From a virus: a stretch of 64,000 bases of DNA. The DNA lies in IMG/VR virus record IMGVR_UViG_3300010391_000273, positions 34,576 through 98,575 of that record; one strand, 5' to 3'. This document shows, in pieces, positions 908 through 46,348 of this stretch (position 1 is the stretch's first letter; every line of letters begins with the position of its first letter). Under the pieces are notes generated by a model that saw only the letters and a program-made list of their open reading frames with translations, was not told the DNA's origin and did no database searches. The position numbers and the translations under genes were made by a program.

Positions 908-3478
908 TTAATTGACCCTCGTTCGTACATTGTTGGATCCTAGGACATAACGCTCTTGGGTTTTTGGCTTCATCCAAGGTTTTGGACCCGAAAATTCAGT
1001 ACTTGAACGTCTTTCGTCTGAAGCATGGGACATGACATAGTAAGCAAGAGCTACAACCGCATGGTCGTCTTTGTGGTCTGCCATAAATTCTGGTCGCTTT
1101 TGATCATAGCGCATTTGGGGAAGGGTCCTAACTAGATAGGGACATCCCTGGTGGCCGTAAGCAAAGAACTGGATTCGTGGGAGGTTTTCTCCAGCTTCTT
1201 CGGCTAGGACATTATGGATAGCTGATGCAAAGACATCCCGTTTGTTAATGGAGCATTCCATAGGGATACCATTAATCTCATAAATCTCTTTAATGGTACG
1301 GATATCAGCTGTTGTGTTGATGTCCATGGAAGGATCACAATAAGTGATAGCTACTTTGAAAACTCCAAGGCGGATGTCTTCGTCTTTGATATCTTCTGCA
1401 ACTTGGGTGGCGGTGGTCTTGTACCAAATCTTCTCGTTGAAGACGATGTGCCTGTTTCCCAGGTGGGCTATCCATAGAACTACAGTAGGATCAGGGAACC
1501 AACCTGAATCGATAGCTCGATAGACAGTGGCATATTTAAGTATTTTGGGTAGGTCGAGTTCAGGAGTAACATGGTAGGGCTTTCCTTCTAAAGTAGGTTT
1601 AAAGTCGAATAGAGCGTTTTCCATCGAGAATTCACCATCTACCCAAGCCTTTCTGACATGGGCTGGGAGGCCGGAGAATCTCTTTTTATACTCTATGGGG
1701 AGATAAGGGTTGTCTTCCAGGTTGGCTTTAATGGCGTACCAATCAGCTGGATTGTAGTCACGATCTTCCTCTGGGTCAACAGTTTTGTCTATAAAGTATT
1801 CTTGAATCTTCTGAGCTGACATTCCCATAGGATTTGTTAGGGCTCTAACGAGGGCACCACAATTCATGTTAACAGGGGCTCGGACTGAAGAGGCCAGTTT
1901 TCTAAAGTGTTCCCATTCAAAGGTTGAGACCTCATCAAACAGGGCCAGATAGAACTCACCTCCGAGAAGGTTTAGTACGTCTTCTTCCGTATTACAGTGG
2001 GAGAAGAAACCTGCTGAACCATTAGAATAGGTTAAAATATGTTTAGTTTGATTGTAGGAGGCCCCTAGAAGTTTAGCCTCCCTAGGGATGGCATAAAGGT
2101 GGGTATTATGAGTTGGGATAGACGTGTATCCAATAAGGTATTGATGTGAAGGATGTTCTACTGCAATACACTTACAAATAGTGTCCTCGACTTGTTCACA
2201 CCCTATGATATAATGATTGCTTGTCGTTAATCTAGTAATTCTAGTTGATTTATAAGTCTCTAGATTTTTTAGTTTTCTAGGAAGTCTAAAAAGAGGTAAA
2301 GAACTTGTCCATTCAACTTTATAGGCTAATTGACAAACTGACCCATTTAACTTTGGTTGGTATTCTGTAATATTTGGTTTAAATCCAAGAGAAGACACTA
2401 ATATAAGAACTTGATAAGCAAGGTTTTTATTCGAATTATAGAAACCAATTAATCCATCTTTTCTTCCATGTCCATCTGTATCTAAAAGTCCTTGTAATAG
2501 AGCAAGCCTATTGTCATAACTACTTATAAGATAAGCTGCTGGAATATGCTTTTTATTTAAAAGCCCTTGAAGACGAAGTTGTTTTTGTAACCTTAGAATA
2601 CCATAACCATATTGATTTGATGGTTGTTTTCTAACTGTGTAACCAAGTTCCACAACGTGTTCAAATATCTCTGGGTCATTTGACGTGATTGCTCCACAGT
2701 CTGAAGAACCGTCACCAAGCCATACCCCTAGTACATAAGGATTTATAGGAAGGGGTTGATTATTCTGTGTTTGCCATGGTTTTGCAATAGGAATAGAGTG
2801 ATTGGCTCGTAAACCATCTTCAACTTTTAATGTATTAAAAATCTCTTGAGTAGTTCGTATTTTTGGTGATGAGTTAATATAGGTTCTGGATTGGGCACCA
2901 GACTGTATTCTCTGTTGGCCCGACCTTTCTCGATGATTTGAGGTGACCCACAAATGACCAGCACTTACAATAAAACTTTCTTTGTTGTCAAACGTTATTT
3001 TGTAGGTTCCTTGTACATCAACTTTAGGAACCGACATACCAATAATTGTCGTGGGAGATCCATCTGGAGCAAAAACTTGATCGCCAATTTCTAAGGTACC
3101 CATGGTTTTCATACCATTTGGTGTAGGAATTAGGGTGTCCAAACTACAGGCTTTTTCAAGCTCGGGGAAAGTCCTTCTTAGAATGACATACTTATAATCT
3201 GGAATAGAGAGAGCCCTAATATGAGCATCCCACCTACCAGTTGTGGACTTGGCAGAACCTCGACCACCATAGAAAAGGACGTTTTCTTCGGTACGTTGGT
3301 GATATTCTACACCTTTTTCGGTGGGAACATAAAGAACCTCATTACCAACGATAACACTACCAACATTACACCATTCACAATTAATAGATGGAGGAATAAA
3401 CTTATGCCTACCATCTGGAGAAGGCTTACAAATTTTAACTAGGGGGATTGTAGTAGGATAATATAGCTCGTTAGACAA
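908..3478 (-). CDS. terL: terminase large subunit, intein-containing
   Basis: Walker A GGRGSAKS, RRTFPEL, Walker B ALFDE, coupling motif TNP, nuclease AIDSGWFPDPT, C-terminal DDHAVVALAY. Confidence 0.95.
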   Translation of the reverse strand: MSNELYYPTTIPLVKICKPSPDGRHKFIPPSINCEWCNVGSVIVGNEVLYVPTEKGVEYHQRTEENVLFYGGRGSAKSTTGRWDAHIRALSIPDYKYVILRRTFPELEKACSLDTLIPTPNGMKTMGTLEIGDQVFAPDGSPTTIIGMSVPKVDVQGTYKITFDNKESFIVSAGHLWVTSNHRERSGQQRIQSGAQSRTYINSSPKIRTTQEIFNTLKVEDGLRANHSIPIAKPWQTQNNQPLPINPYVLGVWLGDGSSDCGAITSNDPEIFEHVVELGYTVRKQPSNQYGYGILRLQKQLRLQGLLNKKHIPAAYLISSYDNRLALLQGLLDTDGHGRKDGLIGFYNSNKNLAYQVLILVSSLGFKPNITEYQPKLNGSVCQLAYKVEWTSSLPLFRLPRKLKNLETYKSTRITRLTTSNHYIIGCEQVEDTICKCIAVEHPSHQYLIGYTSIPTHNTHLYAIPREAKLLGASYNQTKHILTYSNGSAGFFSHCNTEEDVLNLLGGEFYLALFDEVSTFEWEHFRKLASSVRAPVNMNCGALVRALTNPMGMSAQKIQEYFIDKTVDPEEDRDYNPADWYAIKANLEDNPYLPIEYKKRFSGLPAHVRKAWVDGEFSMENALFDFKPTLEGKPYHVTPELDLPKILKYATVYRAIDSGWFPDPTVVLWIAHLGNRHIVFNEKIWYKTTATQVAEDIKDEDIRLGVFKVAITYCDPSMDINTTADIRTIKEIYEINGIPMECSINKRDVFASAIHNVLAEEAGENLPRIQFFAYGHQGCPYLVRTLPQMRYDQKRPEFMADHKDDHAVVALAYYVMSHASDERRSSTEFSGPKPWMKPKTQERYVLGSNNVRTRVN
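2105..3151 (-). mobile_element. class-3 intein with LAGLIDADG homing endonuclease, in terL
   Basis: Starts Ala (ACSLDTLIPTPNG), block B GHLW, block F CKCIAV, ends IPTHN|T. LAGLIDADG motifs PYVLGVWLGDG and LLQGLLDTDG. Splicing restores RRTFPELEK-THLY. Confidence 0.92.
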
Positions 3479-11137: not shown

Positions 11138-11225
11138 TCATGGAGTTCGGCAACACGGAGATGCCGTGGACGTACAATAAGGCGAAGAAGACGCTCACGC
11201 TGGACGAAGAGGCGTAGGACACATC

Positions 11226-11297
11226 GCGGGGATAGGATGACGTGTTATCCATCGGGCCGCGCCCGAGAGGCTGGTGTGACACCCAGTTCCCCGCACA
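11226..11297 (+). ncRNA. tRNA-like cloverleaf RNA, copy 1 (non-canonical D and T loops)
   Basis: 7-bp stem GCGGGGA/TCCCCGC, arms GGAT/ATCC, TCGGG/CCCGA, GCTGG/CCAGT; homologous to 17859..17930 with compensatory changes. Confidence 0.75.
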
Positions 11298-11524
11298 GTT
11301 TGCCGGTTAGTTCAAAATTGGAGATCGAGTTTGGATAACAAGTAGAAACAAGAAAGCTACTATTGTCCATCTCACTAGTAGTGGATGAAGATTGGAGGGT
11401 TTCTGGCCATTTGCCCTCGCTCATGGCGGGTCGGACTGGGGATCGCGCTGTGGAATACCAGTGCAGGGCTCCTGCCGATGATGGTCCGCTGATTGCACAC
11501 CCAACAACTCAGGAGAAACGAATC

Positions 11525-12394
11525 ATGAAACGATTGACATGGGGATTTCTTGCACTCGTGTGTGTCTACAGTCTGCTCGTCGGCGGGTGTTCGTTGGACA
11601 AGGGGTCCACAGGGCCCTCGGCAGTCGAATTGGGGACTCCGGTGTCGCCAGGATCACAGCTGTACACCCTCGTGGGGAGTCAGTTTTTGGGGACATTGAC
11701 CGCCAATGTGGGTGGCACCAGTGGAACATTGGGCATCCTGTTTACCTCAGAAGGGGGCACCGCTGTGACCGCAACGGTGACGTTCAACGATGGCCAGGGC
11801 TATGTGGGCGATGCCGTAGGGACACTGAGCAACCTCCATACACTCGCGCGCAACGGATTATCGGGTGGCGGGTGTACGGCATGGGAGAGTCAGGGAACGG
11901 TGACGTTGGCTGTGCCGCCTGCTCGCGACACCTACACAGGCTCGTACTACGCCACATGCCACAACAGTCCTTCAGCGGTGTTTGGTGATAGCGGGACGTT
12001 TGCTCTTTCCCGTACAGGGACATTGGGACTTCCGATTCCGCCGCCTCCAGTGATTGTAGACGTGTGTCCTAATCTTGAAGGGACACAGCTTGTCGTGCCA
12101 GCGGGATACGTCCTCACAAATGGGCAGTGTGTCCTGATTCCCCCTCCGCCACCGCCCCCGCTGCTCTGCTCCACGTCCTACTGGAGGATGAACAATGGGA
12201 ACACGAACGCCAAACAGAACAAGTGCGTGAACAACGGTGGTACGTGGCTCGGAGAGTTTGACGTGCCGGGATCAGCAGCCGGTATCGAGCACGACGTATG
12301 CAAGTTCCAACCGAATCCACCGGGCGCACCAGGGAACGATGAGACATTGATCACGCCGCCTGGATTGACGCCGATTGCGTGTCCGATCTCGTAG
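11525..12394 (+). CDS. Pro/Cys-rich lipoprotein
   Basis: AGGAG SD then MKRLTWGFLALVCVYSLLVGG|C lipobox, poly-Pro linkers; GC-rich. Confidence 0.75.
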   Translation: MKRLTWGFLALVCVYSLLVGGCSLDKGSTGPSAVELGTPVSPGSQLYTLVGSQFLGTLTANVGGTSGTLGILFTSEGGTAVTATVTFNDGQGYVGDAVGTLSNLHTLARNGLSGGGCTAWESQGTVTLAVPPARDTYTGSYYATCHNSPSAVFGDSGTFALSRTGTLGLPIPPPPVIVDVCPNLEGTQLVVPAGYVLTNGQCVLIPPPPPPPLLCSTSYWRMNNGNTNAKQNKCVNNGGTWLGEFDVPGSAAGIEHDVCKFQPNPPGAPGNDETLITPPGLTPIACPIS

Positions 12395-12887
12395 GCGACA
12401 ACTAACTACTAGTGAATGACGTGGATTTCACTGCTAGATACTACCCAGATAGGCCTTTAACATGAGGTATTACACATACAACGAGCCTCCAATCGTACCC
12501 GGTGGTACACCCACTCAACCTATTCTTTCAGAGGCCCAGATCCTAGCGATCTACTTCCCATGTTGGTCTAAACAGATGAGGAAGGCAGGCAAACAGAATC
12601 TCATCAGCTTCGAGAATTGCATAAAGGATTGGGTTGTAGTCCATTGGGCTTGGGAAGTCCTTAAGCCATTAGATGTATAATCGTGCATGATCGTAACAGG
12701 AAAAAATTAACCATGATCTCAATCATTCTCGGCTTTACGTTAGGTGGCCTAATCCCGGCCTATATCCTTAAGCATTACCAGGCCTATACATGCCTCGTTA
12801 ACCTAAATTGTAATTGTAAATATGATGAGGATTGGTTAGATTAAGTCTTCTAACAATCATGCAATGATCATCAGTCATGCAATGATC

Positions 12888-13088
12888 GGTAGTAGGTTGA
12901 AAAAGTCTCTCTAAGAACAAGTTAAATCCTCAACCGTGCTGGGAGCTAGGTTGAACTCACTTGTCTATGATCTACTGATCATGTTAGAGAGACCTTTTGA
13001 GCCTACTGCCCGGTCAAACCTCAAGGTAATAGGGTGTGAGGTGCCTTCACCTACCATCTTTCTCCCAACCCATTGGTGGTAGGCTCAA
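12888..13088 (+). ncRNA. candidate structured RNA / conformational switch
   Basis: Long rod GGTAGTAGGTT...GTCTCTCTAA / TTAGAGAGAC...AGCCTACTGCC in a gene-free gap, plus a competing strand at 13075-13088. Confidence 0.5.
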
Positions 13089-13135
13089 CTTTATCATTGC
13101 ATAATGATATGCATGATTATTCTAAGGTGTTTAAC

Positions 13136-13711
13136 ATGATCGCGGCTAAAGTCGTCGTCGTCGTGAAGGATCCGTTTGAAGTCAGTCTCTTAACGAGTGA
13201 GGATGCGAACCTCCTTGTTCGTGGGTCAGGGCGTTTGCAAGATCATGCTGCTCGTCAACTCAAACCTGAGTCTGATCCTTTAGGGCTCCCTGTGAATGAG
13301 TGGCAATGTGTTCATGTGGAGACCACCTACAAACAACAGGATGGAGCACCGAAAGGTGTCACCATTCCACAAAGTTTCCGGTGTACCCACTCTATCGATA
13401 ATGGTGGGTTCCTTTGCTCGTACCATGATCGACACCTTCTCTCAATCAAACTGAGCCCGGTTGACCAAGCCCAGTTCAAACTTTGGTATGAGACTCATGC
13501 CGCTGATATCGTGGTCGATGGCGTGATCAAGGCTGACCAGCGTGAACTTAGGAACTACACCATCCAGAAGCGGTGGGGTCTCAAGATCCACACTTGCCCA
13601 ACGCCGCCACAGCTTGTCAACTCCAAGACTGGAAAGACAAGAGAGATCGCTGTTGACCCTGAATGGGAGAAGGTGGAGCTTGTAGGGGCTGGTCAATCCG
13701 ATGAAGTCTGA
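13136..13711 (+). CDS. hypothetical protein
   Basis: AAGGT SD before ATG 13136; coupled to the next ORF. Confidence 0.6.
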   Translation: MIAAKVVVVVKDPFEVSLLTSEDANLLVRGSGRLQDHAARQLKPESDPLGLPVNEWQCVHVETTYKQQDGAPKGVTIPQSFRCTHSIDNGGFLCSYHDRHLLSIKLSPVDQAQFKLWYETHAADIVVDGVIKADQRELRNYTIQKRWGLKIHTCPTPPQLVNSKTGKTREIAVDPEWEKVELVGAGQSDEV

Positions 13712-14096
13712 GGACTACCTGAACGACATACGGCTTAGCTCATTCAAGCCGCTGAAGACTCTTCCTAAGGAGTCTAAGAAGATTCTCTACATGACTCTCT
13801 TTAATGAGGGTAACAAGGTTCTTAAAGCTTATAACCCATGTCAAATTAAGGATGGGACGTGCGCCGGAAGCTATAAGGATGATATAGGCTTATGCTGTAA
13901 TGGTTGTAAGCACCTTGGACCTCTTGGCTGTACTGTTGAAAGCCTAATGTGTAAGCTTTGGCTTTGTCAAGGTATCATACAAACACCAGCTGGTAAAAGT
14001 GCTATCTTAAGACTGATTCAACTTCACCATGTAGCACGAGCATCTGGTGTACCTCTCGTAATGAGATCTTCATTTGAGGCATCTTTCAATGAATGA
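13701..14096 (+). CDS. Cys-rich hypothetical protein
   Basis: NPCQ...CCNGCKHL...GCTVESLMCKLWLC. Confidence 0.6.
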   Translation: MKSEDYLNDIRLSSFKPLKTLPKESKKILYMTLFNEGNKVLKAYNPCQIKDGTCAGSYKDDIGLCCNGCKHLGPLGCTVESLMCKLWLCQGIIQTPAGKSAILRLIQLHHVARASGVPLVMRSSFEASFNE

Positions 14097-14195
14097 CTAC
14101 CTAGGAGAGCTGGCTCCACTCAAGACTAAGCTTAAAATCTTCTATAAGTGTTTTGAGTGTGGACTCATTCGGCGAAGCCTTTTGGAGACCTAAAT

Positions 14196-14696
14196 ATGCG
14201 TGATTTTATCAAAGTGCCAGCTATGTTTTTTACCTATGGTTTTCTCTGGATCGCGATTCAAGACCGTAGTGTTGATGCTCTCGTGGCGATGATCTTACCT
14301 ATAGTTATCTGGGTCTGGGCAGGCACGACTGGTGAATATCCAACCTTTGATTGCACCTCGTGGGAAAAGAAGCTTGCAAAAGAGATTGAATATGGGATTG
14401 AGCAGACTCAAAAACAAGCAGATGAGCAAGAAAATGATCGACAGAGCGGTATACGGTGGTTCAGAGTTACTACTGGTAAACCATCAGTCCTTGCTCAAGC
14501 GTTCTATGTTCAGGGATCAGCCTATGGACCTCAACGATATTTCAGGGCGAAAAGTTATTCTATTAACTGTGGGGCTCTTGTATTAGAAGGGCCGGTTTTA
14601 CCAAAACGGAGCATTTCTGTTTTTTCTTCTGTATGGTTAGAGGATGCTCCACAGTGTATGTCAGCAGGATCTTGGTGCTCTATAGAAGAAATGTAA
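14196..14696 (+). CDS. membrane protein, hypothetical
   Basis: GGAG SD; two N-terminal hydrophobic segments. Confidence 0.55.
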   Translation: MRDFIKVPAMFFTYGFLWIAIQDRSVDALVAMILPIVIWVWAGTTGEYPTFDCTSWEKKLAKEIEYGIEQTQKQADEQENDRQSGIRWFRVTTGKPSVLAQAFYVQGSAYGPQRYFRAKSYSINCGALVLEGPVLPKRSISVFSSVWLEDAPQCMSAGSWCSIEEM

Positions 14697-14863
14697 GGAC
14701 TGTAATAGAAGGAAATCAGGAAAATAGTATGACCCTTTGGTTCATCTCTGATAGATACAACGGGAGCACGATAAATATCTCCTTTGTTTCCATAACTCAT
14801 TGTAACACACCCTTCACCATCGAATAATCCGGCTAGATATTGAATAGAAACAGTCTTTTTCAT
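14555..14863 (-). pseudogene. truncated LAGLIDADG homing endonuclease remnant
   Basis: QYLAGLFDGEGCV motif, GGGAG SD, own promoter (TTGACA-18-TAGACT, 14896-14925). Similarity is lost after about 40 aa, and the frame then runs antisense into 14196..14696. Confidence 0.65.
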
Positions 14864-14928
14864 TTTTAAATACTCCCAATAAGTTACAAACTTATAGTCT
14901 ACTAGATAATAAAGAAGATTGTCAACAA

Positions 14929-15195
14929 GATTAAACTGTTGAAGATCAACAAACCGCCATTCGGACGGGGCTGCAATGCCCCCGACTCCACCATAACAAA
15001 TTTAATGAGTATGGGGTCGACTTAGTTTCGACGGGTAGCTTAGTAGTTGATTGGAGGTTTAGTCGTAAGACCCACGAAACGGGTCAACCGATAGTCAACG
15101 ACTATCAAATGGCAGCGTAAGCTGCAATCGACTTATAAGGTCTAATCACCTTTAGGTCCGGGTTTTGTGGGTTGTCCTCGGAACAGAATCAACCC
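14929..15195 (+). ncRNA. ssrA: circularly permuted (two-piece) tmRNA
   Basis: 3' acceptor piece ends CGACTCC-A-CCA at 14993; 19-nt spacer; then 5' piece GGGGTCGACTTAGTTTCGAC at 15013 (G3:U70). Tag frame ATAGTC-AAC GAC TAT CAA ATG GCA GCG TAA; terminal pseudoknot. Confidence 0.9.
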
Positions 15196-15216
15196 TCTTT
15201 CAAACAAGTTTTAAGT

Positions 15217-15338
15217 TTGTGGTGTCCAGACTCCTTAGAGGAAGAGGAGACACTCCTCACTTAAGCGGCTTAGGCTAGCAGGCTGACAGACGCTGGATGA
15301 GAGACCCCTTTGGCGTAATAGCACACTAGGCACCACAA
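15217..15338 (+). ncRNA. structured RNA directly upstream of the TerD-domain gene
   Basis: Closing stem TTGTGGTGTCCAG/CTAGGCACCACAA enclosing hairpins GAGGAG/CTCCTC and CTAGC/GCTGG. Confidence 0.6.
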
Positions 15339-15352
15339 TCAATAAGGTTAGA

Positions 15353-17092
15353 GTGTATATGATGAATCCAACTCTAGCTACGATTGACCTGTTCAATGTG
15401 GTAGTTGCCTCTGAGACTGGCTTGAACCTAAGCCATGCTCCCTATGGGTTTGTGACCAACTTCCAGCCCACTCAGGAGCAGATTGAGGTTCTGAGGGAAC
15501 GTTTCAAGGCTCTCTCCATCATCACCCTGTTTTCGGTGAGGGAGCGGGAAACCGCAAGCCTTGACCAACTCCTTCTCAAGCAGCTGCTCCACTATGTCGA
15601 GGTATATGGGTTGGAGAGCCCAGGATTGTTCAATCTTGAGGTGATAGGTGGGAGGGTTCAGACCATCTCCTATGTCAAAGCCATCTCGATAGGTGAGCTA
15701 GACAAAAAGATAACTGAACTACTCTATGCCAATCGCCCCATAGATGATATCGCCCCTGTGCTTGAGATCATCTCACACTACAAGATCCTCTATGACTTTA
15801 ACAAGATCAAGAATAACGAGCTAAAGGTCGCTCTCTTTGATATCTGTAGGGATACATTTGTATCTGGAGATGATGCAGTTCGTTATATCTGCTACAAAGC
15901 TACTAAGAGTACACTCCTTATCAAGAGCAAAGATGTCATTCAAAAGGTAGCAGTCAGTCAGCCTTCTGATGAGTTTCTATCCAAGCATGTAAAGCCATTA
16001 GCGCAGGTATTCAATCGACATAAGAGGATCATCCTCGCCTGTAAGAACAAGCTGAATCGTGGAGTGATTAACCGGATCTCAAAGCTGAGTAAAAAGGCTC
16101 ATGTTCCTATTCATGAGGCAGTTTCCAAGAGATTCATCTCATCAGCAGTTAACGGAAAGGTTCCAACCAATCTTCTCGATACTGAGGCCATCACCCTTCG
16201 TGACAAGCTAAAGTATCTAAACTTGATCGAGTATAGGCTCCTTGAGCTCCCCTTTGATACGTTCCTGATCAGGAATGGAAAGGTGTGGGCTGAGACAGAG
16301 CGAGCCATTCTCGATCCATCTAAGTTGACCACTCTTCGGGAACTTATTCTCAAGTCAATTTGCAAAGATTTGAGTGAACTGAGGGGTAAGTCCATCCTCC
16401 TCGATCCTGCCGTTGATTATGGCTTGCCTACCTCCCGGAAACAAGTTGTAGGACGACTTCCCTTCGGGACACGGGTTGAGGTTGATCCTCATGATGAGGT
16501 ACTTTCAGCTGGAATCTACTGGCATAACGACTCATGGGAGGGTCAATCAATCGATCTAGACCTCTCCGCCATAAGCTCAAGTGGTGGTCGTACTGGGTGG
16601 GGACATTACTCAAGCTTCACATCTAAAGATATCGTGTTCTCTGGAGACATCACGAGTGCTCCTGAGGGCGCTATGGAATTCATGATGGTTCATCCAAATG
16701 AGACCAATCGCTATGGTCTCATGGTGAATGTCTACAAGGGTCCAGATGAGTGTCCTATGGAGATTGTGGTGGGATCTTCTAACAAAAAGGATTGGCTTGA
16801 TCTTGCTATCATTCGTGAGAAGATTGTTCTCAAGTCTAAGCAGAGCATCATTGGCTTCCTAAAGGACGATACCTTTGTCGTGTACACTGGGAGACTCAGC
16901 AATTCAAGGGTCTCGGCTGGAAAGCATCCAGTTATCGACAAGGGCTTAGGCAATCTGTGGACGATCAAGACACTTTTGGATGAGTGTAAGGTCAAGTATG
17001 ATTTTGTTCCCAAGGCGGGATTAGTCTACGACTTCGATCTGACCTATCAAAACTTCTCGCTTGACAAGCTAGAAATCCTCTTGGGCGTCTAA
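15353..17092 (+). CDS. large protein with helical N-terminus and C-terminal TerD-like domain
   Basis: GIYW...IDLDLSA...GW...IVFSGDITSAPEGAMEF...VNVY is a TerD-family signature. Confidence 0.75.
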   Translation: MYMMNPTLATIDLFNVVVASETGLNLSHAPYGFVTNFQPTQEQIEVLRERFKALSIITLFSVRERETASLDQLLLKQLLHYVEVYGLESPGLFNLEVIGGRVQTISYVKAISIGELDKKITELLYANRPIDDIAPVLEIISHYKILYDFNKIKNNELKVALFDICRDTFVSGDDAVRYICYKATKSTLLIKSKDVIQKVAVSQPSDEFLSKHVKPLAQVFNRHKRIILACKNKLNRGVINRISKLSKKAHVPIHEAVSKRFISSAVNGKVPTNLLDTEAITLRDKLKYLNLIEYRLLELPFDTFLIRNGKVWAETERAILDPSKLTTLRELILKSICKDLSELRGKSILLDPAVDYGLPTSRKQVVGRLPFGTRVEVDPHDEVLSAGIYWHNDSWEGQSIDLDLSAISSSGGRTGWGHYSSFTSKDIVFSGDITSAPEGAMEFMMVHPNETNRYGLMVNVYKGPDECPMEIVVGSSNKKDWLDLAIIREKIVLKSKQSIIGFLKDDTFVVYTGRLSNSRVSAGKHPVIDKGLGNLWTIKTLLDECKVKYDFVPKAGLVYDFDLTYQNFSLDKLEILLGV

Positions 17093-17101
17093 TTAGCTCT
17101 T

Positions 17102-17284
17102 GAAGCCAATAGAGTTCCTTAAAATTTAATGCAAATTACTCTACGCTTCTAATTAAAAATATGGTTTAACTGGTCTGTATGAGCAAATAGGGTTCCTTAA
17201 ACTTGGTTATTACCCTACGCCCTTAACCTTTTCTCGACAAACAGAGTTCCTTAAAATTTTATACAAATTACTCTGCGTCGGGAA
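17102..17284 (+). repeat. three tandem structured RNA repeats
   Basis: Units at 17102, 17181 and 17231: stem-MAA-YAGRGT-TCCTTAAA...ATT-ACYCTR-C-stem, with compensatory changes. Confidence 0.85.
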
Positions 17285-17329
17285 TCTCTACTAGGCCTAT
17301 TAGAATAACTCGTCAGATAGGAGCCGCCC

Positions 17330-17854
17330 TTGTTTATTTGTGATGTATGTTCGAAGCCTGTCGGCCCTGGGGTCAAGCCCCTTATGCTCATCCTTCCGAC
17401 TGATATGAGGCAGACTTCCTATCATAATGTGATAGTCGATCCCGAGACTGAGGAGAAGTTTACCAAGGTCTCAAGTGGAAGTGAGTTCATCATCGAGTAT
17501 AAAACGTGTGGTGCGTGTGCTGGAGTGGAAGCGAAGATTCCAACCAAGCCCAACCATACAGGCCACATCAACATCATGAGAGGTATGCAAGCTCATGCTA
17601 AGCTGTGTAAGAAGAAGTTTGACGAGTGTGGTCATTGTCAGGAGAATGTGGAGTTTTTCAAGTCGATTCCACTCGTGACCATAAATTTGGGTCTAACCGA
17701 TCCTATGACAAAGCCTATGAAGGTTAGCATGGCCTACACAGTCGTGGAGAACATGCTCAGAAGGTCTAAGCACACCTCCATGCGGTCCAAGGCAGACTTT
17801 AACGTATCTTACCCCATTCTCAAACAGTATGAGGAACGTGGAGGAAGTCTCTAA
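17330..17854 (+). CDS. Zn-finger hypothetical protein
   Basis: AGGAG SD; CDVC, CGAC, CGHC. Confidence 0.65.
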   Translation: MFICDVCSKPVGPGVKPLMLILPTDMRQTSYHNVIVDPETEEKFTKVSSGSEFIIEYKTCGACAGVEAKIPTKPNHTGHINIMRGMQAHAKLCKKKFDECGHCQENVEFFKSIPLVTINLGLTDPMTKPMKVSMAYTVVENMLRRSKHTSMRSKADFNVSYPILKQYEERGGSL

Positions 17855-17858
17855 AATT

Positions 17859-17930
17859 TCGGGGATAGGATGACGTGTTATCCAACAGGTCGCAACTGTT
17901 AGGCCGGTTTCACACCCGGCTCCCCGAACA
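17859..17930 (+). ncRNA. tRNA-like cloverleaf RNA, copy 2
   Basis: TCGGGGA/TCCCCGA, D-arm GGATGACGTGTTATCC identical to copy 1, AACAG/CTGTT with loop GTCGCAA, GCCGG/CCGGC. Confidence 0.75.
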
Positions 17931-22405: not shown

Positions 22406-22852
22406 ATGAGACTTGAACCAACAAACTCAGGCTCACTACGCTGGTTCATTTTGGAAGATGAGGCTTATACTGATGCGGGCTATGACAACCCACCTAGATC
22501 AACTCTCTTAAAGATTCTAGGACGCCATAATCTAACAGTCGCACTCAGTTCTGATGAGGCTAAGCTTAAATTTGATCCTAGAGCTTGTTATACGCACATG
22601 ATCATCGATTTTGATATGCACGGGTTCCCCAATCCCGATTTGACCTTTCCTAACACTGGATTAAACTTCATTCAGTGGATGGTAGCTAGACATAAGCTTC
22701 TAATTCCAACCCCAGAGATTTTCCTCCATTCTCAAAACGTTAGAGGCCGAGAAGCTATGGCTAAACTTCTAAAGGTCTCAGGTTATAAGAAGGTAAGTCA
22801 ACACTACTTTGGTAGAGACTATTTGGCGATGTTGAGTGAGAGGTTCCTATGA
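22406..22852 (+). CDS. cyclic-phosphate-processing receiver-domain protein
   Basis: FILEDE, IDFDM, NTGLNFIQWM, IFLHSQNVRGREAM. Confidence 0.65.
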   Translation: MRLEPTNSGSLRWFILEDEAYTDAGYDNPPRSTLLKILGRHNLTVALSSDEAKLKFDPRACYTHMIIDFDMHGFPNPDLTFPNTGLNFIQWMVARHKLLIPTPEIFLHSQNVRGREAMAKLLKVSGYKKVSQHYFGRDYLAMLSERFL

Positions 22853-22982
22853 AGTTCCTTTGTAGACTCTTCGGGCATAAGCGGCCCAAGTTCAAGCTTC
22901 GGCGAGGTTTCCATTGTCGTCGATGTATGACTTGGGTAAATATCCTTCCTCCTAAGTATGATCGTAAGGATGGCGAGAGCTT

Positions 22983-23198
22983 ATGAAAGACCCCCTTTGT
23001 GAAGGTGGAGAGGCTGAAATCTTCAAGGGCTTCATTCATCTGGGCCTATTCGGGCTCGGTGTGACCTGTGCGGCCTATAATGCGATGGCTTGGAGTCAAC
23101 GCCGCGAGAACCACTTGCTAAAGAACGTGATCGTCTACGGCGCCCTCGCATGGTATGAGGGAGTACAGATCTCCCGACATCTCATAGGGACTAAGTGA
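22983..23198 (+). CDS. small membrane protein (host-like)
   Basis: H.GL.GL...AAYNA.AW.QRRE.HL..N...Y.AL..YE...I.RHL pattern. Confidence 0.6.
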   Translation: MKDPLCEGGEAEIFKGFIHLGLFGLGVTCAAYNAMAWSQRRENHLLKNVIVYGALAWYEGVQISRHLIGTK

Positions 23199-23404
23199 TG
23201 TGGAATAAACTTAAGTGCCTACTTGGCTTTCATGACTATGTTCCAAGTTTAAATGCCAAGTATGACTATTGCACTCGTTGCCCCAAATACATTAAGGTAG
23301 TTTAAAATGAACGAAACTATTGTGCCCCTGCTCGGTTGGATACCTATCATCTATTGCGTAGTGATGTTGGGGATTCACGCAGGCAAACCAAGTGGCGGTT
23401 TTCG

Positions 23405-23746
23405 ATGAAATTCCTAATCCTACTTTTGCTCACTCTTACTCCACTTGAGGCGAAGGAATTGAAGATTAGTGTGAAGGTGACACCCACGATCTGTCTGGCT
23501 CCCTGCACGGTGCGGGTCGAGTTGGTGATTCCTCAACAAGAAGACAACCGATGGGCTGTTGTTGAAGTGAGTGGAGATATGTTTCGCTCCACACAAGTTC
23601 AGCTTGATGGACTCTCTGCCCCAAAACGCTTCACCTTCACCTACAAAGATCTTCCTGAAGACAACTACGACGTTAAGGGTATGTTATACAATAGCGTCCG
23701 AGAAATTGGTCGCTCACAGCAAACCCTAATTGTCAAAGGCTTTTAA
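23405..23746 (+). CDS. exported beta-sandwich protein (host-like)
   Basis: Signal peptide; VTP..CLAP, DNR, FRSTQVQLDG..APK, LP...YDV. Confidence 0.65.
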   Translation: MKFLILLLLTLTPLEAKELKISVKVTPTICLAPCTVRVELVIPQQEDNRWAVVEVSGDMFRSTQVQLDGLSAPKRFTFTYKDLPEDNYDVKGMLYNSVREIGRSQQTLIVKGF

Positions 23747-23766
23747 GCTATAGATGATTATAAAAA

Positions 23767-24039
23767 ATGTCTAAAGGCCGGAGAAGTTACAGGCATCTTA
23801 GTGAAAAATGGGTTGCAATCTTAAGAAAAGACCCTTGCTCATTTTGTGGAGTGAGAGCCTCTATCACGATTGACCACATTTTCCCTTTGAGCAAGTTTAA
23901 TGAACTTAAGACTTATTCTACGTTTGGTCCCAATAATTGGGAGAACCTTACTGGAGTCTGTTGGGATTGCAATGAATTTAAAGGAACAACTAAATTGTTA
24001 AGATTCCTTGTGGAGGCTCATGAAAATCTACTTCATTAA
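23767..24039 (+). CDS. HNH endonuclease
   Basis: CSFC, TIDHIFPLS, NWENL..VCWDCNEFKG. Confidence 0.85.
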   Translation: MSKGRRSYRHLSEKWVAILRKDPCSFCGVRASITIDHIFPLSKFNELKTYSTFGPNNWENLTGVCWDCNEFKGTTKLLRFLVEAHENLLH

Positions 24040-24219
24040 ACATGAGACTGATTATGGTCCCTTCTTTTCCTCTAGAGCGAAAGCCCTAGACTATCTCAAA
24101 GAAGATTCTGAGTGGTGGAAGGTATGGGGAGCTGGGATAGAGACTGATAAAGACGCCTATATAACAGTTCAAGAAGTCGAACTCGATGATGAAAATGTTA
24201 GATTTGATGGTTAATCTTT

Positions 24220-25107
24220 ATGAGTTACATGCACATAGACCTACTTTACAAGTGCCCAGACATCTTAGCTTTTAAACAACTCTTTGCCTTAGAGAAGATT
24301 CATGGGACGAGTGCTCACCTTAGACTTAAGCTTGGGGAGATTACCTACTTCTCAGGTGGGGAAAGTCTAGGTAAGTTTAGAGCCTTGTTTGATGATGACA
24401 AGCTTCATGAGGCCTTTAAGACTAAGTTTGGTGAGGCCGATGTAGTTACCATCTATGGTGAGGCCTACGGAGGTAAACAACAGGGCATGAGCCATACCTA
24501 TGGGCCTGACCTGAAGTTTGTGGCCTTCGAGGTCAACCTGAACGAGATGTGGCTGAGTGTTCCTCAAGCTCACGACTTCTGTACGAGTTTTGGAATTGAG
24601 TTTGTAAGTTATAATCTTGTAAGCTCAGACTTAGAGACTCTTAATGCTGAGCGTGATTTGCCTTCTGTGCAAGCCGTGAGAAACGGAATTACTGAGCCTA
24701 AGCTCCGAGAAGGCATCGTTCTGAGACCTCCCTTCGAATGTAAGACTAATAGGGGTAGGCTCATCTCTAAGCATAAGGGTGAGGCTTTTGACGAGCGCGA
24801 TAAGCCTGTTCACCCTGTCGATCCAGCAAAAGCTGATGAACAGGTTAAAGCCGAAGCCATCGCCTTTGAATGGGTAACACCTAATAGGCTTGAACATGTA
24901 ATCGACCATATGGTTGCCATGCGGGAGGATAAAGAGGTTGGTATGGAAGATGCAACAGCCCTTATTGCTGATATGGTTGAAGACATCACCCGAGAAGGTG
25001 CAGGTGAGGTTGAAATGACTCCCAAACTCAATAGGAAGGCCATAGGAGCCCAAACAGTGAAGCTTCTTAAGGCTAGACTCCAAGCAAGACTAGAACAAGC
25101 ATCATGA
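24220..25107 (+). CDS. RNA ligase, Rnl2 family
   Basis: EKIHGTS (motif I), YGEAYGG, FVAFEV, REGIVLR, ISKHK. Confidence 0.88.
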   Translation: MSYMHIDLLYKCPDILAFKQLFALEKIHGTSAHLRLKLGEITYFSGGESLGKFRALFDDDKLHEAFKTKFGEADVVTIYGEAYGGKQQGMSHTYGPDLKFVAFEVNLNEMWLSVPQAHDFCTSFGIEFVSYNLVSSDLETLNAERDLPSVQAVRNGITEPKLREGIVLRPPFECKTNRGRLISKHKGEAFDERDKPVHPVDPAKADEQVKAEAIAFEWVTPNRLEHVIDHMVAMREDKEVGMEDATALIADMVEDITREGAGEVEMTPKLNRKAIGAQTVKLLKARLQARLEQAS

Positions 25108-26249
25108 CTTTAGATCCTGAGCTATTCGATGTCCATGAGAAAGACGGCCTTAGACTTATCATTCCAGCTAGGAATGGGTCTGTAGCCAACGCCCCATGGT
25201 CTAAAGAAACTGTTATGTATCGGTCTAGAGTGGAAACTTTAGAAGGATTAGTTGTTTCTCAAGGCTTTGGTAAGTTCTTCAATTTGGCGACTGGGCCTGA
25301 TGGTCTAAGGGTCGAGCTTGATGACTTGATCAAGGCAACTGAGAAAAGTGATGCTATAGCAACCCTTAAGATCGATGGCTCACTCCTGATTAGGTCGGTT
25401 TATAATGGCAAGATCATGCTCAGGACTAGGGGCAGCTTTGGGTATGAGTTCTTAGATAACGCCGATGAGATCGACCTCTTTAGAGCTAAGTATCCACTTG
25501 TCTTTGATCCTAGCTTATTTGTGGGTTATAGTCTCCTATTTGAGTGGGTAAGCCCGAGGAACGTAATAGTTCTTAAGTATCCTGAGCCTAACATCATCCT
25601 AATTGGGGGTGTGCAGCATACTCCAGACTTACCATACCTGACGTTTGCCCATAGTCAGTTGGACTTCATTGCAAAACGTTTAAATGTGCCGCTTGTTACC
25701 TCCTTTGATTTGACTTCTGAGGGCTGGGCTGAACTTCATGCAAACTTGGAGTCTAACCAAGAGATTGAGGGTTATGTTATCAGGCTTCATAATGAGCAAG
25801 TCTTAGTCAAGGTGAAGTGTGCCCCATATTTGACTAAGCATGGGCTTAAATCGACCTTGACAACCGAGAAACTCATCGACATGTGGTTCCAGCAGGGATC
25901 ACCTGATTATCAAGCTTTTTGTGCAACTTTCCTTGCAAGTTTTGACGAGGAAACCTTTATGTGGACCTTGGGGGCTATCTCAAGTCTCTTTGATGGGATT
26001 AGAACCCTAACCAAGATCATGAACCATATGGGCGGTAAAGTCGAGGTTAGGAAGAATTGGCCTAGAAAAGAAGCTGCCCTAGCTGGGCTAGCCGAGTACG
26101 GTCAAACTAAGAGATTCTCGGCTTACATGAACTTGTGGGAAGGTAAACAGCCTAGCTTTGATTTGCTTAAATCGCTTCTGTTGCAAAATACCAAGCAGGT
26201 CGAAATTGAAATGTTCAAGGCTACAGGCCCAGCTATTTTAGGAGATTAA
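25104..26249 (+). CDS. RNA ligase, T4 Rnl1 family
   Basis: KFFN, TLKIDGSL, RTRGS, LLFEWVSPRN.IV, EGYVI, VKVK...Y. Confidence 0.88.
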   Translation: MTLDPELFDVHEKDGLRLIIPARNGSVANAPWSKETVMYRSRVETLEGLVVSQGFGKFFNLATGPDGLRVELDDLIKATEKSDAIATLKIDGSLLIRSVYNGKIMLRTRGSFGYEFLDNADEIDLFRAKYPLVFDPSLFVGYSLLFEWVSPRNVIVLKYPEPNIILIGGVQHTPDLPYLTFAHSQLDFIAKRLNVPLVTSFDLTSEGWAELHANLESNQEIEGYVIRLHNEQVLVKVKCAPYLTKHGLKSTLTTEKLIDMWFQQGSPDYQAFCATFLASFDEETFMWTLGAISSLFDGIRTLTKIMNHMGGKVEVRKNWPRKEAALAGLAEYGQTKRFSAYMNLWEGKQPSFDLLKSLLLQNTKQVEIEMFKATGPAILGD

Positions 26250-28965: not shown

Positions 28966-29828
28966 CATGATTAAGCCCAAGTGTGATCATAGAGTTAAAC
29001 CAACTCCCTCAGGATATGTATGTATAAAATGTGGGAGATTTGCATGATAAAGCCTATGATCGAAAGGCTAAGAGCTGCTATTAAGGATGCTGAGGCTTGT
29101 AGTCCTAAGCATGGAGTGATCATCTCTCAGACTGATGCAAAACGATTGCTTTATAGACTATTGAAAGAGGAGAACCATGATAGGAAAAAATACATACCCT
29201 TTTCTGTGTAAACACCCCTTCCATAGCCTAAAACGAGTTGATGATGGAGACTATGGAACCCACTTCATTTGTAAGAGGTGTGGCGCTAAATTAGACATGC
29301 TTGGAAGACCATGGCAAGAACAATAAAATCTTTCTTTAGGGTTACCAAGCCTTCTAAAAGGTTCTTTTATCTTATGTTGTGGATTTTAACCTTTGAGATT
29401 GTTACTATCCTAATGGGTGGTGGGAGCCTATGGCGTAAGACTCCCCAAGTATGTAATCCAAGAGTCTTAAGTACTTGTGAGCCTTAATATGCTTTATATA
29501 GTTCTTATTGTTGTAGCTGTTTTTGCAGTTTGGTTAGATTGGAAACGTATAGCCAAATCCCCAAAATGCCCAACTTGTAGAAGGAGCTATTGAGAATGAA
29601 AGAAATCCATGTTGGTAAGCTTGATGATTGGGATGAGGTCCCACAAACTGTTTATTTGTCATGGTCTGAGGCTAGAAAACTTGACTATTGTATGCGAAGA
29701 GATCTTCATACAGCAAGTCATATAGAGTTAAATCGAGATATGAGTCGAGGACGGTACTTAGAACGAGCTGCTTACTATAAAGAACAGTTAAACACTTTAC
29801 TTAATGGTGGTTAAATTTAGGAGAAGAA

Positions 29829-30568: not shown

Positions 30569-30664
30569 GGACCTGTAGCTCAATTGGTAGAGCGGTAGGC
30601 TTATATCCTACGTATGCCCTAGATTGGGGCGCGGTTGGGGGTTCGAGTCCCTCTGGGTCCACCA
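30569..30664 (+). tRNA. tRNA with TAT anticodon (Ile, AUA) and a long variable arm
   Basis: GGACCTG/TGGGTCC-A-CCA, D-arm GCTC/GAGC, GTAGG-CTTATAT-CCTAC, 25-nt V region, GGGGG-TTCGAGT-CCCTC. Confidence 0.9.
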
Positions 30665-39455: not shown

Positions 39456-39649
39456 ATTTTTAGGTAGTCCCCGAGCTACCTAAGAAAGCTGCCCCGGCAG
39501 CTTAGAGTGGTGAAAGTCCACACCGGGCCATTTTCATGATTATGTTTAATCGTATGCATGATCAAAAGGGCAAATAGGCGTTCATAGAGCCATGATCCAC
39601 ATCATGGCTCAATAGCCTAAGGGGTTCCCTCATCTTTTGGATCAGTCAT

Positions 39650-39707
39650 GTCATGATGTACGATAGTGCTCTCCAAAAGCACTTTTCGCAGTTCGATGCC
39701 GTCGCCA
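39650..39707 (+). pseudogene. degenerate tRNA-Trp(CCA) remnant
   Basis: GTGCT-CTCCAAA-AGCAC arm, GTTCGA and terminal GCCA, but no intact acceptor or D arm. Confidence 0.45.
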
Positions 39708-39711
39708 ATTT

Positions 39712-45855: not shown

Positions 45856-46348
45856 GACCTTACCCATCAAAATAACAGATACATTAGAAGCGAGATTCTG
45901 GAAGAAAGTAGACAAGAAGGAGAAGAATAGTTGTTGGCTTTGGTTAGGTGCCCGACTTCCAAGTGGTTATGGCCGCTTATTTCTATTTAAAAAGAATGGT
46001 ATCCCTTATTCAAGAGGTGCTCACAGAATAGCCTACACTCTTTTAGTTGGTGACATTCCAAACGGACTTTTAGTTTGTCATAAATGTGATAACCCTCCAT
46101 GTTGTAATCCAGATCACCTATTTCTTGGAACATATAAAACTAACGGCCAAGATATGGTACTTAAAAAGAGAAATTTTACCCCAGCTTGCAAAGGTGAGGC
46201 AAATGGTAAGTCCAAGTTAACAAATCAATTAATCCAAAAAATTAGATTTTCAAAACTACCTAGTAGACAATTAGCTAAAGAACTTGGTATTTGTAAGTCC
46301 TCTATTAATTATGTGAGATCAAAGGTATTATGGAAACACATCCCTTAA
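45848..46348 (+). CDS. HNH homing endonuclease
   Basis: RFWKKV, CWLW.G, GYG, AHR.AY, VCHKCDNPPCCNPDHL.LGT...N..DM, C-terminal HTH. Confidence 0.92.
   Translation: MSETLPIKITDTLEARFWKKVDKKEKNSCWLWLGARLPSGYGRLFLFKKNGIPYSRGAHRIAYTLLVGDIPNGLLVCHKCDNPPCCNPDHLFLGTYKTNGQDMVLKKRNFTPACKGEANGKSKLTNQLIQKIRFSKLPSRQLAKELGICKSSINYVRSKVLWKHIP

Follow-up and report, generated by a model that had tools for sequence, protein, structure and literature searches.

Two elements of 72 nucleotides (nt) in the genome of a tailed phage fold as a transfer RNA (tRNA) does, without the signature bases of one; are they tRNAs, tRNA pseudogenes or RNAs of another kind? They lie in a stretch of 64,000 nt (the window, to which window positions refer), which is bases 34576-98575 of the IMG/VR record IMGVR_UViG_3300010391_000273 (98,575 base pairs (bp), rated complete); positions within the elements are numbered 1-72 in each copy. 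The genes of this phage include an intein-bearing large terminase, a UDG-PolA fusion and RNA ligases of the Rnl1 and Rnl2 types. The phage stretch is present in two DNA runs of one sediment study, with the elements identical in both and no variants, and no RNA run is listed among the sequencing runs that contain it. The two elements are:

11226..11297, plus strand: copy 1, a tRNA-shaped RNA of 72 nt (sequence, RNAfold and pair table)
17859..17930, plus strand: copy 2, a tRNA-shaped RNA of 72 nt with the architecture of copy 1 (sequence, RNAfold and pair table)

An earlier note on this DNA had placed two 72-nt copies there, and both were found, on the plus strand. Our results establish an RNA structure that is under selection, has the dimensions of a tRNA, is not a standard tRNA and sits where relatives of the phage keep their tRNAs. 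The elements are probably a non-decoding tRNA look-alike.

When folded alone with RNAfold, each copy adopts a four-arm cloverleaf as its minimum free energy structure (-35.2 kcal/mol for copy 1 and -30.2 kcal/mol for copy 2), with a z score of about -3.3, and shuffled sequences fold equally well in 1 of 200 cases for copy 1 and 0 of 200 for copy 2. The cloverleaf is retained in RNAfold with about 75-80 nt of added flank, while the reverse complements of both copies, that is the minus strand, give no such cloverleaf. In both copies the acceptor stem has 7 bp and is joined by UA (positions 8-9) to a D-stem of 4 bp, whose loop has 8 nt. The third arm, of 4-6 bp, is centred on CGC and is separated by a variable region of 3 nt from the T-stem, which has 5 bp and again a loop of 8 nt and abuts the acceptor; the ACA at the 3' end is single-stranded. 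RNAfold and the pair table agree with a tRNA-type cloverleaf (7-bp acceptor, D-stem of 3-4 bp, anticodon and T-stems of 5 bp). The D-arm of both copies reads GGAU-GACGUGUU-AUCC, without GG in its loop. In copy 1 the acceptor pairs as 1-7/63-69, the D-stem as 10-13/22-25 and the T-stem as 45-49/58-62, the T-loop is the 8-nt UGUGACAC, and the third arm can form either as 27-32/36-41 with a CGC triloop or as 27-30/38-41 with a 7-nt loop. In copy 2 the third arm is 26-30/38-42 and closes a 7-nt loop, GUCGCAA, in which U precedes CGC and A follows it. The arms listed in the earlier note (7-bp acceptor, TA linker, GGAT/ATCC D-arm, CGC-centred arm, 5-bp T-stem and 3' ACA) were all verified. It had further stated that the elements lack G18G19, TTC and CCA; GG and CCA are indeed absent, but the 8-nt T-loop of copy 2, UUUCACAC, holds the letters UUC, outside the canonical register. 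The 24-mer GGGGATAGGATGACGTGTTATCCA, common to both copies, occurs exactly twice in the window, against 0 expected from shuffles, the 16-mer of the D-arm occurs twice in the entire 98,575-bp record, and R1, a covariance model built from both copies, detects no further copy in the window with its filters off.

The differences between the copies argue that this pairing has been kept. The copies align ungapped and differ at 15 of 72 positions; nine of the differences fall within the 20 core pairs, and none of these pairs is broken. Both sides have changed at core pairs 1/69, 27/41, 29/39 and 47/60, pair 45/62 is G-U in copy 1 and G-C in copy 2, and both bases of pair 32/36, at the foot of the anticodon-like loop, differ as well (C-G in copy 1, U-A in copy 2), which brings the double changes to five. 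The pair table thus bears out the compensatory stem changes that had been claimed. In a simulation with 15 random substitutions all 20 pairs survived in 29 of 150,000 trials, and among the trials with at least nine stem hits in 0 of 69,547. Sliding the 3' partners by 1-3 columns lowered the paired cells from 96% to 30-48% and the double changes from five to 0-1. Although it is a single pairwise comparison, this is still strong evidence of kept pairing. The G-U pair 45/62 of copy 1, together with the direction of every credible nearby gene, places the RNA on the plus strand.

Conservation is unevenly spread along the molecule. Bases 2-26 are 100% identical, the other 46 positions differ at 14, and the remaining difference is at base 1; frozen in sequence between the copies are the acceptor stem (pair 1/69 aside), all of the D-arm and the T-loop in its 3' half, whereas the anticodon-like loop is the part whose bases are least conserved. 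The non-canonical D-loop, the 8-nt T-loop and the CGC are common to both copies, and because both carry it this non-canonical state is older than the divergence in which the stems covaried. These observations bear on the idea that the elements are non-functional remnants, two old tRNA pseudogenes whose stems and shared block come from chance plus gene conversion. Such an origin would fit the absence of tRNA signature bases, the lack of a homologue in the collections searched, the loss by this phage of the big tRNA arrays found around the TerD-family gene of relatives, and the identical 5' block, a typical product of gene conversion. It is nonetheless improbable, given nine stem differences without a broken pair, an outcome that no neutral trial reproduced, and non-canonical features that predate the divergence.

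A repeat acting at the level of DNA is the least probable explanation that we considered, be it a recombination or protein-binding site that bounds a 6.6-kb cassette or a short repeat with a coding frame on the minus strand. The copies are direct repeats that bracket a block with a transfer-messenger RNA (tmRNA) and the TerD-family gene, and one minus-strand frame is open through both of them. But the double compensatory changes and the G-U pairs speak for pairing in a plus-strand RNA, and the sequence between the copies does not stand out as an island by its composition. We judged the minus-strand frame not credible as coding sequence: the minus-strand open reading frames (ORFs) overlap plus-strand genes, and the differences between the copies would mostly change amino acids.

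The borders of the conserved span also point to an RNA. Similarity between the copies begins at acceptor base 1-2 and stops after the ACA; the flanks are no more alike than shuffled sequence (1115 of 2000 shuffles score equally upstream and 312 of 2000 downstream), and the proteins that flank copy 1 are unrelated to those that flank copy 2. A mature small RNA would be expected to leave a span of this kind. The earlier view of a structure-selected non-coding RNA rather than a decayed tRNA is supported by the borders of the homology block, which coincide with those of the cloverleaf, and by the compensatory changes. Copy 1 starts 8 nt past the stop of a 25-codon ORF (11141-11218), copy 2 starts 4 nt past the stop of an ORF of 174 amino acids (aa; 17330-17854), and the next plus-strand ORF lies 65-95 nt downstream of each element. 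Scans of the region for sigma-70 promoters and terminators stayed at background level, with no site flanking the elements. Because of this tight ORF spacing and the lack of a flanking promoter or terminator, we read the elements as putative intercistronic modules in long plus-strand transcription units. No complement of at least 12 nt to the invariant block, as an antisense target would have, was found in the whole genome. The 25-codon ORF before copy 1 ends in GAG GCG TAG, GCG being the codon for anticodon CGC; the ORF that precedes copy 2 ends otherwise, and the GCG ending is probably due to chance.

Tools for the detection of tRNAs and known RNA families set the elements apart from the phage's own tRNAs. 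With default settings ARAGORN reports in the window only tRNA-Ile(TAT), tRNA-Gln and tRNA-Asp and misses both elements, as had been predicted. In mitochondrial mode it labels both copies Ala(cgc), with -ps80 only copy 2; in these relaxed modes, which make 30 (mitochondrial) and 70 (-ps80) calls in the 98-kb genome, mostly false, a call on the elements means just 'cloverleaf-like'. (A further default call, 'tRNA-???' with a 2-base anticodon, lies 5 kb before the start of the window, at genome positions 29484-29553 on the minus strand.) Rfam finds the three tRNAs and a two-piece tmRNA in the window, and neither element matches any of its families, RF00005 included: there is no match at the gathering score, none over 8 kb with E<=10, and only noise on slices of 112 nt with the same limit; this was the check that the earlier note had proposed against a known family. 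The phage tRNA-Ile, tRNA-Gln and tRNA-Asp are canonical, with a D-loop GG, a GGTTCGA T-arm and an encoded CCA, whereas the elements have none of the three. Since the true tRNAs of the phage are canonical, the host tRNA machinery is taken to be standard.

The bases that hold a tRNA in shape and those that let it decode are missing as well. Of the tertiary set (U8/A14, G18G19 and a 7-nt T54-Psi55-C56-R57-A58 loop), the elements depart in the D-loop GACGUGUU, with a G at position 14 and no GG, and in the 8-nt T-loops UGUGACAC and UUUCACAC. An anticodon loop of 7 nt with U33 and purine 37, conserved between the copies, is not present either: copy 2 alone fits, and copy 1 has the loop GCCGCGC, with C instead of U before CGC, which is able to pair shut into a triloop. 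The G3:U70 pair is the alanine identity pair of tRNA, and pair 3/67 is G-C in both copies. The next-best scores of model R1 are ordinary tRNAs (33.5 bits at positions 66-139 of L043, one of the loci described below, 18.7 bits for a tRNA-Gly and 15.7 bits for the tRNA-Gln of the window), and for this reason we call the architecture tRNA-like. Decoding is unlikely because G18G19, the 7-nt T-loop, CCA and G3:U70 are absent and the loop of copy 1 can close. Copy 2, with its 7-nt loop, U and A around CGC and the letters UUC, is the more tRNA-like of the two, a hint that a genuine tRNA gene may have been the ancestor.

Another reading would be that of a genuine, unusual tRNA-Ala with anticodon CGC. 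It would account for the Ala(cgc) calls in mitochondrial mode (and that of copy 2 with -ps80), for the 7-nt loop of copy 2 with U before and A after CGC, and for the GCG codon that ends the small ORF before copy 1. We hold it to be very unlikely: the third pair is G3-C and not G3:U70, while the phage tmRNA does have G3-U; copy 1 lacks U33 and its loop pairs shut; the missing D-loop GG, the 8-nt T-loop, the 3-nt variable region and the lack of CCA are all unlike the phage's own tRNAs; and the Rfam tRNA model is silent at E<=10 on 112 nt, with relaxed ARAGORN calls mostly false.

How might such a molecule build an elbow? As the earlier note had observed, the D-loop GTGT complements the T-loop ACAC, and this is true in both copies (GUGU at 17-20 and ACAC at 54-57), with all eight bases invariant. 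The chance of a 4-nt Watson-Crick match between two 8-nt loops is 8% for random pairs and 9-12% for shuffles of these loops, and GUGU/ACAC gives no covariation signal because all eight bases are invariant. On these sequences a Watson-Crick kissing elbow would be neither supported nor excluded. Equally open is an alternative in which U50 and A54 of the T-loop, which are conserved and have the spacing of the T54-A58 pair, would act like that pair. A bolder proposal, that the elements form a new class of phage tRNA mimic, L-shaped through a GUGU/ACAC kissing helix instead of the G18G19 elbow and acting in trans with a TerD-family partner or as an anti-defence decoy, seems to us unlikely.

Searches for relatives were made with the element itself and with its neighbours. 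No homologue was found among 50,697 phage records, either by megablast with 7.6 kb or by blastn with the element, exact 19/20-mers of the D-arm had no match in viral, metagenome and genome contig collections, and a pattern of the 3' half had none in viral and genome contig collections. A degenerate pattern with free D- and T-loops had one viral and four bacterial matches, a number that fits chance, and these were rejected; the five show no cloverleaf fold, no Rfam match and no significant z score bar one weak -2.0. No close phage relative was found in IMG/VR through the 174-aa, 579-aa and 343-aa ORFs and PolA. We then took 46 loci around homologues of the 579-aa ORF, which codes for the TerD-family protein; two of them (L032 and L036) duplicate others (L003 and L005), leaving 44 distinct loci, and the closest relatives of the protein (59% identity, mostly in Logan/ENA contigs) lie outside this set. 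Over the 44 loci, with filters off on the closest seven, R1 returned only ordinary tRNAs or noise, its best score being the 33.5 bits of the canonical tRNA in L043. The element would thus appear to be an orphan from one phage population.

We propose, with a probability of about 0.4, that the elements are tRNA-derived, structure-selected, non-decoding RNAs handled by the enzymes that process tRNA ends, as mascRNA is. They would be paralogous copies derived from a tRNA, transcribed from the plus strand in long multi-gene transcripts, in which selection would hold the four helices and the tRNA dimensions (acceptor on T-stem, 2-nt linker, 4-bp D-stem). The 5' edge would be cleaved by RNase P and the 3' edge by RNase Z/BN, or else by RNase E together with exonucleases, and the ACA end could possibly be completed by the CCA-adding enzyme. 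The transcript would in this way be cut at two intercistronic points, and a stable tRNA-shaped RNA of about 70 nt would be freed. Descent from a tRNA, processing and any role of the released RNA are inferred, and the invariant D-arm suggests that it is read by a protein.

The closest parallel is with mascRNA and menRNA, which RNase P and RNase Z release from the 3' ends of MALAT1 and MEN-beta (PMC11693755). Like these, the elements are non-decoding cloverleaves in a longer transcript, as predicted here, with a tRNA-sized acceptor and T-arm, no encoded CCA, and borders of conservation that are the borders of the small RNA; acceptor and T-arm form a coaxial stack of 12 bp (7 + 5, with no linker), as in the mascRNA-type module. 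In mascRNA the third arm is a long stem with a compact loop, and two D-loop guanosines and a U-A of the T-loop build the elbow (PMC11693755). A long-stem, compact-loop 'anticodon' arm is found again in copy 1, whose third arm has 6 bp and the CGC triloop. However, mascRNA is eukaryotic and nuclear and keeps the D-loop guanosines and a canonical T-loop, while the elements have no GG and an 8-nt T-loop, and thus not its elbow, and carry a full-sized, invariant D-arm.

Several points weigh against the tRNA-derived, end-processed RNA that we propose. RNase P and RNase Z read the tRNA elbow, in which G19-C56 is stacked on the T-loop (PMC11693755); the elements lack the D-loop guanosines of this elbow, and recognition by either enzyme would need a re-wired one. 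The 3' ACA differs from the RCCA that aids bacterial RNase P. The ancestry is deduced from shape and neighbourhood; no sequence similarity to any tRNA was found, and an alignment with the tRNA-Ala genes of relatives shows no kinship. Lastly, selection is read from one pairwise comparison, of two sequences in one phage population, and bases 2-26 might be identical through gene conversion instead of selection.

The neighbourhood adds to the case for a tRNA origin. Between the copies lie two features:

14888..15198, plus strand: two-piece (permuted, alpha-type) tmRNA (Rfam RF01849, 55.4 bits; RF04321, 69 bits)
15353..17092, plus strand: 579-aa protein with a C-terminal TerD fold (AlphaFold model, Foldseek and VIA-align)

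The tmRNA has a G3-U acceptor pair and a non-TTC T-loop, and ARAGORN missed it. The 579-aa protein belongs to no Pfam (E<=0.01) or PHROGs family. An AlphaFold model built from 38 homologues has a mean pLDDT (the model's own per-residue confidence score) of 82, and its TerD domain, residues 374-529, matches 2kxt, 3ibz and 2qz7 with a Foldseek probability of 1.0 and is also found by VIA-align (Z 9.0, root-mean-square deviation 3.9 over 141 residues). The top Foldseek rows, botulinum toxins with TM scores of about 0.1, were set aside as spurious. The only ESM Atlas entries that the N-terminal part resembles are hypothetical proteins of viruses and RING-domain proteins of actinobacteria. The protein has more than 876 homologues at E<=0.001, the closest with 59% identity. 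tRNA genes are found near the homologue in 28 of 38 loci, often 10-33 in each, on the gene's own strand in every locus but L034, and a tmRNA in five loci; a cultured cyanophage, S-CRM01, has its homologue (g174) amid a tRNA array. The other ORFs of window positions 7.6-21 kb have no homologue in these loci. In the present phage the tRNA arrays are absent, and the TerD-family gene is flanked instead by the tmRNA and the two elements. As the homologues sit inside phage tRNA arrays, the elements occupy tRNA-array territory, and this context strengthens the case for their tRNA origin. The 579-aa protein is a member of a large unnamed phage family, with an uncharacterised N-terminal part and a TerD domain, and this family is a candidate tRNA-linked factor.

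This protein is also a possible partner in a reading where the cloverleaf serves as the scaffold of a ribonucleoprotein, with its invariant acceptor/D-arm face read by a protein, for example one of the TerD family, much as a Y RNA is by Ro60. We think this possible but doubtful; it is compatible with processing. Jumbo phages have been reported with ROT/TROVE proteins that act with a tRNA-like partner in cells (PMC7824862). The full identity of bases 2-26, as against 14 differences in the other 46 positions, is what a bound face would give, but gene conversion could account for the block as well. A TerD-family gene does lie between the copies, with homologues embedded in tRNA arrays, and a non-canonical cloverleaf also follows the homologue in one scanned locus, L011; the association, however, is with ordinary tRNA genes generally, and the element is absent from the scanned relatives. 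TerD domains are not known to bind RNA. Of the 'TerD/Ro-like' protein suggested before, the TerD domain is confirmed by the fold searches. A Ro60/TROVE domain was detected in it neither by Pfam and PHROGs, nor by its family profile against the PDB, nor by Foldseek and VIA-align, which match the TerD domain only, the N-terminal part being weakly tested, and Pfam at E<=0.01 assigned no family at all to the 10 neighbouring ORFs scanned, the 579-aa protein included. The Y-RNA motif GNCGAAN0-1G is absent from both copies.

ARAGORN overlooks the cloverleaf of L011 (7091-7165, plus strand). This cloverleaf ends in an encoded ACCA, its D-loop has 5 nt and no GG, its T-loop is UGGAAAU and its z score is -2.5, and it lies about 370 nt past the TerD-family gene, whose protein is 56% identical, and a few bases before a tRNA-Tyr. 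It is unrelated in sequence to the elements of the window; non-canonical tRNA-like RNAs may recur in the neighbourhood of TerD-family genes.

Further downstream, 4.5-8.4 kb beyond the region of the elements, there is a set of RNA-repair genes (22406..26249), with ATP-grasp R2K-like proteins after it:

22406-22852, plus strand: cREC_REC cyclic-phosphate receiver
23767-24039, plus strand: HNH endonuclease
24220-25107, plus strand: Rnl2-type ligase, overlapping the Rnl1-type gene
25104-26249, plus strand: Rnl1-type ligase

The elements thus sit in a region of RNA repair and ribosome rescue. A tRNA shape without decoding features in counter-defence, RNA-repair surroundings (tmRNA, cREC receiver, Rnl1- and Rnl2-type ligases) could be that of a decoy or sponge, which would occupy a host factor that targets tRNAs, be it a toxin that binds the acceptor end or the elbow, a nuclease or a modifying enzyme, and so shield tRNAs of host or phage during infection. 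We regard this, too, as improbable, since the elements are without the elbow bases recognised by many proteins that bind tRNAs and two copies embedded in operons are not evidently a high dose. The decoy for anticodon nucleases that the earlier note had offered as an example is unlikely in particular: the anticodon-like loop, the target of the classic enzymes, is the least conserved part and can close to a triloop in copy 1.

Other known systems share some features with the non-decoding, tRNA-derived RNA proposed here. The YrlA RNA of M. smegmatis has a 7-bp acceptor, is cleaved by RNase P and receives CCA, and Y RNAs carry GNCGAAN0-1G in the helix that binds Ro, together with canonical D- and T-loop bases (PMC4201824). 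A Ro60 (TROVE) gene within about 4 kb on the same strand is a further mark of these RNAs. YrlA resembles the elements as a prokaryotic or phage tRNA mimic near RNA-repair genes on the same strand, and in YrlA, too, invariant sequence, that of the D- and T-stems, is unexplained (PMC4201824). It differs in that the elements have neither this motif, nor canonical D- and T-loop bases, nor an Rfam match.

The small stable T4 RNAs named RNAC and RNAD measure about 120-140 nt. They are thus longer than the elements, and they are single-copy. They are alike in being small phage RNAs other than tRNAs that lie in tRNA-gene territory, here the tRNA region of T4, and have no known role (PMC3014915, PMC9697503). 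With canonical tRNAs the elements share the cloverleaf of 7/4/5/5 bp, UA at 8-9 and a 3' end that is single-stranded beyond a discriminator A; they differ in having no G18G19, G and not A at 14, an 8-nt T-loop, a 3-nt variable region, an unconserved anticodon loop, no CCA and no G3:U70. D- and T-loops without the conserved elbow bases are also found in many animal mitochondrial tRNAs.

Some further observations concern other parts of this phage. The tRNA-Ile(TAT) of the window (30569-30664) belongs to a form of 92-96 nt with a long variable arm, unusual for tRNA-Ile, which is also found in three distant phages with a TerD-family gene (L004 13818-13909, L006 8539-8631 and L020 3462-3553). Between tRNA-Gln and tRNA-Asp there is a spacer of 256 nt (39456-39711) with several evident hairpins and no ORF; it is possibly a further small RNA or a spacer with a part in processing. 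LAGLIDADG domains lie in the large terminase (908-3478, minus strand) and in a PD-(D/E)XK nuclease (46330-48300, plus strand), which suggests inteins.

What would these elements mean for the biology of tRNA mimicry? Few tRNA mimics are known, and there has been something to learn from every one of them, whether the viral tRNA-like structures, the Y RNAs or mascRNA. The TerD-family proteins, tied to tRNA arrays or a tmRNA in dozens of phages, are a better-populated lead than the RNA itself. A phage RNA with a tRNA geometry that is selected without any of the universal elbow nucleotides would represent another way to build an elbow, or to forgo one, and would be a simple substrate for the requirements of RNase P, RNase Z and the CCA-adding enzyme.

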